A stretch of 64,000 nt of DNA, taken from Escherichia phage vB_EcoM_WL-3. Position numbers and translations under genes: made by a program. The notes beneath the pieces are model-generated. The model ran no database searches. It was not told the origin of the DNA and worked only from the letters and a program-made list of their open reading frames with translations. This document shows positions 34,152-35,807 of this stretch, piece after piece (the stretch's first letter is position 1; every line of letters starts with the position of its first letter). The stretch lies in sequence record MT968995.1. The stretch is one strand, 5' to 3'.

Positions 34152-34502
34152 TTAATATTCTTTTAAAGCATCAACCTGTTCACGACGTTTACGCCATAAA
34201 TCAATTGCTTCATACGCAGATTCAGCATTTCGAATTGGACGACATTTATATAAAGACTTGTGATTTTGATATTGTGTAGATAACGGAATTTTATCTAAAA
34301 GGTCTTTACGTTCAAAATATTCGTAACCATCTAAACCAAATGAACGATTTTTGAGAAATTGCCAATGACCATATTCGTTTTCGACATAAACATAATCTGC
34401 ATGCTGATAAAGCAAATTAATTACACGTTCAGAAATAACAGTGTCATTGTGATTAAAATAGAATGTTAAATCATGAACTACTAAATAAACATTACCTTTC
34501 AT
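34152..34502 (-). CDS. Hypothetical protein
   Basis: ORF track 116 aa. Confidence 0.5.
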   Translation of the reverse strand: MKGNVYLVVHDLTFYFNHNDTVISERVINLLYQHADYVYVENEYGHWQFLKNRSFGLDGYEYFERKDLLDKIPLSTQYQNHKSLYKCRPIRNAESAYEAIDLWRKRREQVDALKEY

Positions 34503-34521
34503 ATTTTCCTCACTTATAATT

Positions 34522-34597
34522 GGTCGAGGCAGTAGGGATCGAACCTACGACCTAGGACTTAGAAGGTCCTTGCTCTTCCTTCTGAGCTATGCCTCGG
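34522..34597 (-). tRNA. tRNA-Arg (anticodon UCU)
   Basis: Hand-folded cloverleaf; anticodon stem-loop GGACC-UUCUAAG-UCC; TTCGATC T-loop; encoded CCA. Confidence 0.8.
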
Positions 34598-34601
34598 ATT
34601 T

Positions 34602-34676
34602 GGCGGACATGATAGGATTCGAACCTATAACCAATCGCTTAACAGGCGATCGCTCTGCCATTGAGCTACACATCCA
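34602..34676 (-). tRNA. tRNA-Asn (anticodon GUU)
   Basis: Hand-folded; anticodon arm ATCGC-CTGTTAA-GCGAT; TTCGAAT T-loop; encoded CCA. Confidence 0.7.
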
Positions 34677-34680
34677 AATT

Positions 34681-34767
34681 GGTGGGGAGTGATGGAGTCG
34701 AACCACCCGAGTCGCAATGACAATGGATTTACAGTCCACACCGCTACCTCTACGGGATAACTCCCCT
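34681..34767 (-). tRNA. tRNA-Tyr (anticodon GUA), long variable arm
   Basis: Anticodon loop CTGTAAA identical to E. coli tRNA-Tyr; TTCGACT T-loop; encoded CCA. Confidence 0.7.
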
Positions 34768-34779
34768 AATTCTTAATTT

Positions 34780-34854
34780 GGTGGCCCTGGGTGGAATTGA
34801 ACCACCATCTGGCGATTATGAGTCGCTTGCTTGAACCTTCCAGCTACAGGGCCA
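34780..34854 (-). tRNA. tRNA with anticodon CAU (Met or lysidine-type Ile)
   Basis: Acceptor GGCCCTG/CAGGGCC; anticodon loop CTCATAA; TTCAATT T-loop; encoded CCA. Confidence 0.65.
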
Positions 34855-34861
34855 AATTTTC

Positions 34862-35347
34862 TTATTTTATGTAATATTTATTTAAAAACTTTCTAGCTTG
34901 AGTATGGCTAACATTTATAGCATTTGCATAATTTTTAATAAAACCTCGTTCATCCATATTAAAACTTTCTAATATTTTTAATCGTCTAGCTATCTCATCT
35001 TGACTTAAAGTACTTGCATTATTTTTAGAAATTTTTTCTAAGGACTGTACTGAGTGTTTTCGACCATTAAAATTAAAATTTTTAGATTTTGGAGGAAATC
35101 TATCATTTAGTCTCGCATCTTTTGTATTTTGATTATTAGTTGCGCAATATATGTTATTTAATGAGTATGGTCCTTTATCACCAAAACGGCACATACAGTA
35201 TTCATGACCCTTTCTTCCACGCTTATCATAATTTCCCGTTGATTTCCACCAATGCAACCACTCATCAAAAGTTAAATTCCATTCAATGTTTCTACGTATA
35301 GCAGAATTCCGCTGAGAAATATATTTTGCATAATCTTCTTTCATCAC
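34862..35347 (-). CDS. Cys/His-rich ORF in the tRNA gap; candidate mobile nuclease-like gene
   Basis: 161 aa; A/T-rich; motif NLTFDEWLHWW...GHEYCMCRFGDKGPYSLNNIYC; occupies the slot where T4 carries segB. Confidence 0.55.
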   Translation of the reverse strand: MMKEDYAKYISQRNSAIRRNIEWNLTFDEWLHWWKSTGNYDKRGRKGHEYCMCRFGDKGPYSLNNIYCATNNQNTKDARLNDRFPPKSKNFNFNGRKHSVQSLEKISKNNASTLSQDEIARRLKILESFNMDERGFIKNYANAINVSHTQARKFLNKYYIK

Positions 35348-35391
35348 AAATTTCTCTACTTATTACATACACTAAGCTAAATCAGCAAAAC

Positions 35392-35481
35392 TGGCGGAGG
35401 CGATAGGATTTGAACCTATGAGTCGCCGGAGCGACTGCCGGTTTTCAAGACCGGTGCATTAAACCACTCTGCCACGCCTCC
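35392..35481 (-). tRNA. tRNA-Ser (anticodon UGA), long variable arm
   Basis: Anticodon arm CCGGT-CTTGAAA-ACCGG; TTCAAAT T-loop; encoded CCA. Confidence 0.8.
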
Positions 35482-35483
35482 AG

Positions 35484-35557
35484 TCTCCATACAAGGATTT
35501 GAACCTTGGACCTCCTGATCCCAAATCAGGCGCTCTACCAAACTGAGCTACACGGAG
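35484..35557 (-). tRNA. tRNA-Pro (anticodon UGG), 3' CCA not encoded
   Basis: Anticodon arm CCTGA-TTTGGGA-TCAGG; 2 nt from tRNA-Ser (dimeric precursor as in T4). Confidence 0.75.
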
Positions 35558-35567
35558 TAAATTAAAT

Positions 35568-35641
<74 letters not shown>

Positions 35642-35646
35642 AAATT

Positions 35647-35733
35647 TGGTGCGAGAAGTGGGACTCGAACCCACAAGGAAATCATTCCGCAGCATTTTAA
35701 GTGCTGTGCCTTTACCAATTTGGCCATTCTCGC
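35647..35733 (-). tRNA. tRNA-Leu (anticodon UAA), long variable arm
   Basis: Anticodon arm CAGCA-CTTAAAA-TGCTG; TTCGAGT T-loop; encoded CCA. Confidence 0.8.
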
Positions 35734-35734
35734 G

Positions 35735-35807
35735 CTGGGAATAAAGGACTCGAACCTTTGCATCCTGGAATCAAAATCCAGTGCCTTACCAACTTGGCTA
35801 ATTCCCA
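35735..35807 (-). tRNA. tRNA-Gln (anticodon UUG), 3' CCA not encoded
   Basis: Acceptor TGGGAAT/ATTCCCA; anticodon loop TTTTGAT; 1 nt from tRNA-Leu (Gln-Leu dimer as in T4). Confidence 0.75.

Follow-up and report, generated by a model that had tools for sequence, protein, structure and literature searches.

What kind of gene separates the two subclusters of transfer RNA (tRNA) genes in Escherichia phage vB_EcoM_WL-3? In the 64,000-nt stretch of this genome that we analyzed (record MT968995.1; referred to here as the window), the gap holds a complete open reading frame (ORF) of 161 codons at 34862..35347 on the minus strand, with a GTG start codon at 35345-35347, ATG as codon 2, and a TAA stop codon at 34862-34864. 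The original prediction, made from the sequence alone, had placed an A/T-rich ORF of 161 amino acids at this position, and both the reading frame and its composition were borne out: the GC content of the ORF is 29.0%, compared with 35.1 ± 3.1% in equally long segments (2nd percentile), and that of its C-terminal half is 23%. The two strings quoted in that prediction, NLTFDEWLHWW and GHEYCMCRFGDKGPYSLNNIYC, are also both found in the translation. The ORF is not a chance reading frame, as protein homologs 38-61% identical to it exist in other T4-like genera and about 7,300 clusters match its N-terminal domain. We identified it as an intact allele of the phage T2L gene trna.1 and as a member of PHROG 16521, which PHROGs lists with unknown function. 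We infer, at a probability of roughly 0.55, that it is a free-standing selfish gene of the homing-endonuclease type, whose protein carries a variant HNH domain and would act as a nuclease.

The N-terminal domain and its PacI-type motif

The N-terminal domain (residues 1-84; 35096..35347, minus strand) consists of two helices and a beta-beta-alpha unit, and corresponds to a PacI-like His-Me finger that has lost both the histidine and the zinc site. According to the secondary structure of the models, the predicted beta-beta-alpha core covers residues 50-80 (35108..35200, minus strand) and is built from a first strand (50-54) ending in R54, an omega loop (55-65) containing D57, Y61, and N65, a second strand (66-70), and a helix (71-80) bearing N74; further helices are modeled at residues 2-18 and 27-37. 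AlphaFold2 gave a predicted local distance difference test score (pLDDT) of 92.2 for the full protein and 93.9 for the domain alone, the latter with a predicted template modeling score (pTM) of 0.81. The best structural match of the N-terminal model was the HNH restriction enzyme PacI, and the match spans the N-terminal helices as well as the beta-beta-alpha unit. The core thus has the antiparallel strands, omega loop, and helix by which a His-Me finger is recognized. The quoted motif, beginning NLTFDEWLHWW, had been likened to small phage nuclease or zinc-binding modules, and the first half of this comparison holds, in that it forms the core of a nuclease-type beta-beta-alpha (HNH/His-Me finger) fold with PacI as its nearest match, but the second does not, since the module is neither zinc-binding nor a Cys/His module.

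The description of the protein as Cys/His-rich was mistaken, as its 161 residues include just three Cys and four His. In an alignment of 129 family sequences, Cys51 and Cys53 are each present in 84% of relatives and Cys68 in 77%, with V, A, S, or I as substitutes, while His48 is retained in 6% and His32 is not conserved. Because no Cys or His ligand is invariant among the relatives, the protein has no conserved zinc site. No set of four conserved Cys/His ligands was found in this alignment, in which hydrophobic residues occur as substitutes, and the column frequencies likewise ruled out a zinc finger and an endonuclease VII-like Cys site.

By contrast with these residues, W30, W34, R54, D57, G59, Y61, N65, and N74 are invariant in the family. 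R54, D57, Y61, N65, and N74 are present in 129/129 sequences of the first alignment, and the equivalent columns are unchanged in 125/125 sequences of a second alignment composed of further family members. A profile search with the N-terminal domain recovered 7,279 cluster representatives at E ≤ 1e-3 and 5,172 at E ≤ 1e-10. None of the 254 members scanned had a Pfam model over the N-terminal module; the other domains found in these proteins were NUMOD3, NUMOD1, I-TevI_DNA-bd, and helix-turn-helix domains of several types, among them Sigma70_r4, HTH_23, and HTH_7. The partners of the module are almost exclusively sequence-specific DNA-binding modules typical of homing endonucleases, and the joining of a nuclease-type domain to modular DNA-binding domains (NUMOD or helix-turn-helix) is found family-wide. 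No nuclease family was retrieved from Pfam, NCBIfam, or PDB when either the protein or the domain profile served as the query. Matches to eL37 and ITK, together with 'ribosomal protein L37E' labels in JGI data, were rejected as compositional noise.

The N-terminal domain is duplicated in tandem in about 12 of the best-scoring relatives (P0129-P0139 are among the proteins noted). The family member P0204 (319 aa) contains, in this order, a canonical Endonuclease_7 domain, a module of the N-terminal type, NUMOD3, and a helix-turn-helix.

The comparison with PacI was made at the level of families, using a small PacI family alignment and a PacI query sequence that is 100% identical to 3ldy_A. The hhalign program aligned the two families with an E-value of 0.0014 over 66 columns, at a probability of 18%, and placed R54 on R93, Y61 on Y100, N65 on N104, and N74 on N113 of PacI. 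The sequence likeness of the two families is confined to this profile level (E 0.0014), as comparison of single sequences gave an E-value of 0.13 and a profile search of PDB returned no match. The spacing R-x6-Y-x3-N-x8-N is nonetheless identical in the ORF protein and in PacI (PDB 3LDY/3M7K). PacI, which belongs to His-Me finger group 20 (Jablonska et al., 2017), is the classic example of an HNH enzyme without a general-base His, whose role is taken over by a Tyr in the omega loop, and it binds its metal ion through one Asp and one Asn (PMC4081073, PMC5714182), the latter being N113 (PMC3996161). The profile register therefore means that the invariant residues of the family reproduce the catalytic pattern of PacI. 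As in the PacI group, the omega loop contains a Tyr in the absence of the His, with Y61 located seven residues past R54 just as Y100 is located seven past R93. The structural Asn before strand 2 and the metal-type Asn in the helix are represented by the invariant N65 and N74.

The agreement with PacI is not complete. At the end of strand 1, where a general-base His would be expected, both alignments have Arg54 (129/129 sequences in the first, and throughout the 125-sequence one). Asp92, the metal ligand that immediately precedes the Arg in PacI, has no acidic counterpart, as position 53 is Cys in 84% of relatives and Ala or Ser otherwise; D92 is invariant in the PacI family, whereas the invariant acid of the ORF family is D57, at a different position. 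The two Cys4 zinc sites of PacI are absent from the ORF family, since the segment with the CxxC knuckle is deleted in the hhalign alignment and C109 and C112 face residues other than Cys. Finally, PacI is a stand-alone restriction enzyme without a NUMOD or helix-turn-helix tail, unlike the ORF protein.

In overall layout, the ORF family resembles phage HNH homing endonucleases of the I-HmuI/HNH_3 type (His-Me finger group 2), in which a beta-beta-alpha-metal domain is likewise followed by NUMOD or helix-turn-helix modules (PMC5714182). The structural Asn and the helix Asn are at equivalent positions in both. However, the D74-H75 pair of I-HmuI, which includes the general-base His, contrasts with Cys/Ala/Ser-Arg in the ORF family, and the Pfam models HNH_3, HNH, and zf-His_Me_endon did not match any member scanned.

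The C-terminal module and the tRNA clusters

The C-terminal region (residues ~92-158; 34874..35074, minus strand) is predicted to bind DNA and combines a NUMOD3-like motif with a four-helix helix-turn-helix. The motif GRKHSVQSLEKISKNN (residues 95-110; 35018..35065, minus strand), also given as GRKHSVQSLEKIS within residues ~92-158, aligns with the NUMOD3 region of the SegB-like protein of phage RB18; NUMOD3 is detected in relatives and falls below the Pfam threshold in the ORF protein. Residues ~92-158 share 33% identity (E 2e-15) with the C-terminal end of the RB18-type SegB-like GIY-YIG protein, which scores for both GIY-YIG and NUMOD3 in Pfam. Similarity to the RB18 protein is restricted to residues 53-157, and the ORF protein has no similarity to the SegB protein of T4. 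That the ORF does not encode a GIY-YIG protein, as had been stated, is thus correct: its protein has no Pfam hit, and its resemblance to Seg proteins is limited to the C-terminal DNA-binding part. The genes for SegB and for the RB18-type SegB-like protein nevertheless resemble the ORF in being free-standing, wedged among tRNA genes with a stop codon a few nucleotides before the next tRNA, and sporadic in distribution. They differ from it in their catalytic domains, which are unrelated (GIY-YIG in the SegB type, a PacI-like beta-beta-alpha unit in the ORF), and in the junctions that they occupy, namely Ile|Arg for T4 segB, Gly|Ser for the RB18 gene, and Ser|Met for the ORF. Cleavage and homing have been demonstrated for SegB (PMC2330249), whereas for the ORF protein both are predicted.

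The tRNA genes on either side of the ORF confirm that it lies between two subclusters, all on the minus strand. Upstream are the genes for tRNA Gln-Leu-Gly-Pro-Ser (35392-35807, minus strand), and downstream are those for tRNA Met(CAU)-Tyr-Asn-Arg (34521-34853, minus strand), so that nine tRNA genes share the strand of the ORF. Its immediate upstream neighbor is tRNA-Ser(UGA) (35392..35481, minus strand), the last gene of the first subcluster, and its downstream neighbor is tRNA-Met(CAU) (34779..34853, minus strand), the counterpart of 'tRNA-Ile' in T4, whose 5' end is 8 nt past the ORF stop codon. The position of the ORF had been equated with that of T4 segB, but this does not hold, because segB is located between tRNA-Ile and tRNA-Arg (PMC2988022) and the ORF between tRNA-Ser and tRNA-Met(CAU). 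Both T4 and ime09 have tRNA-Thr where the window has the ORF. The notion of a shared slot is therefore inexact, as the tRNA gene that gave way to the ORF lies upstream of the segB slot by one to several positions.

A remnant of this tRNA-Thr gene is still recognizable. Alignment with T4 and ime09 places its 5' half at 35342..35386 (minus strand), where 35371-35386 reads GCTGATTTAGCTTAGT on the minus strand and corresponds to the first 16 nt of tRNA-Thr, with 15/16 bases matching T4 and ime09. Weaker colinear blocks, GTAGAG and TTGTGATGA, reach into the start codon of the ORF, and the 3' half of tRNA-Thr is absent in the window.

Comparison of the tRNA gap across related phages agrees with the earlier suggestion of mobile genes replacing one another, in that the behavior of the ORF is that of a mobile gene of tRNA clusters that is optional and can be replaced. 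When the 1.6-kb region was used as a query, it was at least 80% covered in only 23 of the 848 matching phage records. Most records have tRNA-Thr instead; the typical T4-like phage lacks the ORF. Full-length homologs, 38-61% identical, are present in Karamvirus, Biquartavirus, and Gelderlandvirus, in Klebsiella phages, and in a metagenomic T4-like contig. In every T4-like genus examined, the homolog is inside the tRNA cluster, the junction differs each time, and each such homolog extends up to the 5' end of the tRNA that comes next, or overlaps it. The homolog follows tRNA-Leu in Citrobacter phage CkP1 and Gly in the metagenomic contig, occupies the Asn|Tyr junction in Aeromonas phage 31 and the Gln|Arg junction in Salmonella phage S16, and is present twice in Klebsiella phage SmallBear, at Tyr|Lys and after Asp. 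The CkP1 record annotates the tRNA after this homolog as tRNA-Thr(TGT), whereas ARAGORN calls it tRNA-Tyr(GTA).

Closely related genomes are polymorphic for the presence of the gene, with sharp boundaries, in two pairs, the window versus ime09 and phage 31 versus 44RR. In phage 31, the ORF is a clean insertion of about 495 bp in the 13-bp Asn/Tyr spacer, and it is absent from 44RR2.8t, in which the flanks are 99% identical. Phage 44RR2.8t has instead, between tRNA-Tyr and tRNA-Lys, a 184-aa T5orf172/MUG113 ORF of the GIY-YIG superfamily that overlaps the 5' end of tRNA-Lys; this ORF is missing in phage 31, whose family member is in the neighboring Asn|Tyr spacer. Similarly, RB18 has its SegB-like gene at Gly|Ser, in phage OE5505 an annotated HNH endonuclease, present besides a trna.1-type ORF, takes the place that tRNA-Gln has in the window, and the tRNA cluster of SmallBear_ER8 includes two PHROG 16521 copies and a Seg-like homing endonuclease. 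The contents of the OE5505 and SmallBear clusters indicate that T4-like tRNA clusters collect several endonuclease-type ORFs. Overall, free-standing homing-endonuclease genes that compete with one another would be expected to show this distribution.

The association with tRNA genes does not extend to the whole family. Five distant members with the N-terminal domain, examined on their own contigs, lie in phage or island surroundings where no tRNA gene is present within 3-4 kb, and two of them are on the opposite strand within runs of phage structural genes. Proximity to tRNA genes is therefore a trait of the T4-like subfamily with the SegB-like tail and not of the N-terminal domain.

A possible homing mechanism and its competitors

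The comparisons above establish that the gene is real, as well as its domain architecture, fold, motif register with PacI, presence/absence polymorphism, and association with tRNA clusters; from these, catalysis, target site, and homing are inferred as the most economical reading. If the ORF protein is a homing endonuclease, the C-terminal NUMOD3-like and helix-turn-helix module would bind at a site within the tRNA-gene region of phages without the ORF, where the likely target is the tRNA-Thr gene or an adjacent junction. The N-terminal PacI-like His-Me finger, having lost the canonical His and the zinc knuckles, would then cut the DNA by a one-metal mechanism. In this scheme, Mg2+ would be held by N74 and probably D57, the invariant omega-loop Tyr61 would stand in for the missing His as it does in PacI, R54 would stabilize the phosphate, and N65 would brace the loop. 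During a mixed infection, the break could be repaired from the genome that bears the ORF, and the ORF would thereby be copied in. In the lineage of the window, the 3' half of tRNA-Thr may have been lost to such copying; the presumed target would thereby also have been destroyed and the carrier protected.

Several observations weigh against cleavage and homing by this protein. The His that defines HNH catalysis is exchanged for an invariant Arg, the position of the PacI metal ligand Asp92 is Cys, Ala, or Ser, and the two Cys4 zinc sites of PacI are missing. P0204 already possesses a canonical Endonuclease_7 domain beside the module. For the related N-terminal domain of T4 Srd, the known activity is binding of RNase E and not cleavage of DNA. 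His-Me fingers without the His can be non-catalytic DNA binders, such as the MH1 domain of Smad (PMC5714182), and a 'PacI-like' HNH protein of Skunavirus produced no exclusion in the one reported assay (PMC12724721). In crosses between T4 and T2L, moreover, trna.1 was lost instead of spreading, though the T2L allele is truncated.

Alternatively, the protein could be a site-specific DNA binder without catalytic activity. The N-terminal module would then be a degenerate His-Me finger kept for DNA binding or dimerization, comparable to Smad MH1, and the gene would be a regulator or a domesticated or defunct relic of a homing endonuclease. We regard this as unlikely but as deserving serious attention. 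It accommodates the change of His to Arg and the non-acidic residue at the Asp92 position, as well as the precedent of two His-less groups of the superfamily that are inactive (PMC5714182). The frequency of regulator-type helix-turn-helix partners (Sigma70_r4, HTH_23, Mor, GerE), the coupling of the module to a canonical Endonuclease_7 domain in P0204, and the lack of exclusion by the Skunavirus protein (PMC12724721) point in the same direction. However, the residues that are invariant are exactly the catalytic set of the PacI type (R, Y, N, N) plus an Asp, and this set is unchanged over thousands of clusters with differing contexts and DNA-binding modules, which suits catalysis better than target recognition. 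The partners NUMOD3, NUMOD1, and I-TevI_DNA-bd are hallmarks of nucleases, and a sporadic distribution that hops between junctions requires a mechanism of mobility.

A different role is suggested by T4 Srd, an 'anti-sigma' and RNase E-stimulating protein (NC_000866, 11039-11785) whose known role is the binding of RNase E (PMC13232886) and whose relation to the family is weak. The N-terminal ~80 residues of Srd align with the family and contain ER-x-D..GY...N........N in the register of PacI R93/Y100/N104/N113, but the C-terminal region of ~160 residues is different and has no NUMOD or helix-turn-helix tail. Given the hhalign E-value of 0.0022, the shared register, the Foldseek results, and a weak PHROG 4592 match, Srd may itself contain a PacI-like His-Me finger without the His. 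The N-terminal domain of the ORF protein could accordingly be imagined to bind RNase E or another RNA-processing enzyme without any cutting of DNA, and the location of the ORF inside the tRNA precursor transcript would allow it to tune tRNA or mRNA processing.

We consider such an Srd-like modulator improbable. Residues 5-70 of the family do align with residues 11-81 of Srd (ERFDNNVGYIKGNVIAVKKKYN) in the PacI register at the above E-value, Foldseek lists proteins labeled 'Anti-sigma factor' or Srd, and the PHROG 4592 match ('decoy of host sigma70') has an E-value of 0.0035; the portion of RNase E bound by Srd is its N-terminal half (PMC13232886), and the ORF, which lacks a promoter of its own, abuts the 5' end of a tRNA. 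Yet the similarity is weak and limited to the part resembling a His-Me finger, the other ~160 residues of Srd have no counterpart in the ORF protein, and the C-terminal half of the latter is a DNA-binding module common to Seg endonucleases. Distant family members also lack a tRNA or RNA-processing context, and the gene is dispensable and decays in T2.

That the protein is instead a zinc-binding or Cys/His module, or an accessory enzyme of tRNA modification or repair kept for translation-related reasons, has very little to commend it: the gene is inside tRNA clusters in all T4-like genera examined and a CMC motif is visible in its sequence, but the conserved Cys/His ligand set is missing, the gene destroys a tRNA gene instead of serving one, most relatives are without it, members outside T4-like phages are not near tRNAs, and no similarity to a tRNA enzyme family was found.

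Relation to T2L trna.1, wider significance, and local features

The ORF is not newly seen here. It was already described as trna.1 of phage T2L (AJ880101; PMC2330249) and is catalogued as PHROG 16521; it has thus been on record since 2008 without an assigned function. In T2L (AJ880101; Brok-Volchanskaya et al., 2008), the locus is occupied by this very gene, whose DNA is about 98% identical to that of the window, and Brok-Volchanskaya et al. (PMC2330249) counted it among two ORFs whose function was not known and used it only as a hybridization probe. In their crosses of T4 with T2L, trna.1 was recovered in 0.4% of the progeny, as the region is replaced by SegB-driven homing (PMC2330249). The region as a whole shares 96.8% identity with phage T2 and 97.3% with phage vB_EcoM_ECO78, and counterparts of the ORF that are 96-97% identical are present in phages REP1, OE5505, ECO78, and others.

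Alignment of AJ880101 (stretch 1387-1870) with the window (34862-35347) revealed two 2-bp deletions in the T2L allele, at about nt 24-25 and 93-94 of the ORF, so that this allele encodes only residues ~30-161. In T2 genome records, the ORF is matched in three frame-shifted pieces. Because the deletions in the T2L and T2 alleles remove the first ~29 residues, including R19, F27, and W30, the published trna.1 is a decayed copy, while the intact gene is present in the window and in at least seven other phage records.

HNH homing endonucleases are well known, as is the Tyr mechanism of PacI in a restriction enzyme, and 'PacI-like' free-standing HNH genes of phages have been named in Skunavirus from HHpred results (PMC12724721). 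We found no description of the large zinc-free family with its invariant R/D/Y/N/N motif, of the SegB-like tail, of the tRNA-junction subfamily, or of the resemblance to Srd. We put forward, as a tentative proposal that may well need revision, that T2 trna.1 would be the first to be named in a very large class of homing endonucleases of phages (no fewer than 7,000 clusters at 50% identity, to which Pfam, NCBIfam, and PHROG assign no function). The catalytic domain of this class would be a PacI-type His-Me finger free of both zinc and histidine, with an omega-loop Tyr and the motif R-x2-D-x3-Y-x3-N-x8-N; T4 Srd would represent another recruitment of this domain, and one subfamily would invade tRNA-gene junctions of T4-like phages in competition with genes of the SegB-type GIY-YIG, T5orf172, and HNH kinds.

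If the protein does cut DNA, the class would be mechanistically distinct among homing endonucleases, with an HNH domain that relies on Tyr and Arg and requires neither His nor zinc. Thousands of phage proteins now labeled 'hypothetical' would thereby gain a function, and a compact catalytic domain of ~85 residues, whose DNA-binding modules can be swapped, would become available. The long-known non-homology between T2 and T4 in the tRNA region would then reflect competition between two mobile nucleases and not the action of one. It also raises the question of what a PacI-like domain does in T4 Srd. If the protein is inactive, the ORF would be an ordinary optional ORF of phages, of which the annotation could still be improved.

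Within the window, no second copy of the ORF and no Seg-like relative was found elsewhere, and no promoter or terminator belonging to the ORF itself rose above the shuffle expectation. A hairpin sequestering the ribosome-binding site, such as that of segB, was considered and rejected, as the 5' region of the ORF folds no better than shuffled sequences (z 0.39). Just downstream of tRNA-Arg, at 34152-34502 (minus strand), is an ORF of 116 aa that corresponds to T2L 'trna.2' and PHROG 3355 (function unknown); it is labeled 'endonuclease' in the ECO78 record, a label without Pfam or NCBIfam support. At 35310-35360 (minus strand) there is a weak 7-bp stem in which a Shine-Dalgarno-like GAGAAAU could pair with AUUUCUC about 20 nt into the ORF. 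The first of the 2-bp deletions of T2L is located 6 nt upstream of the second arm of this stem (AUUUCUC).

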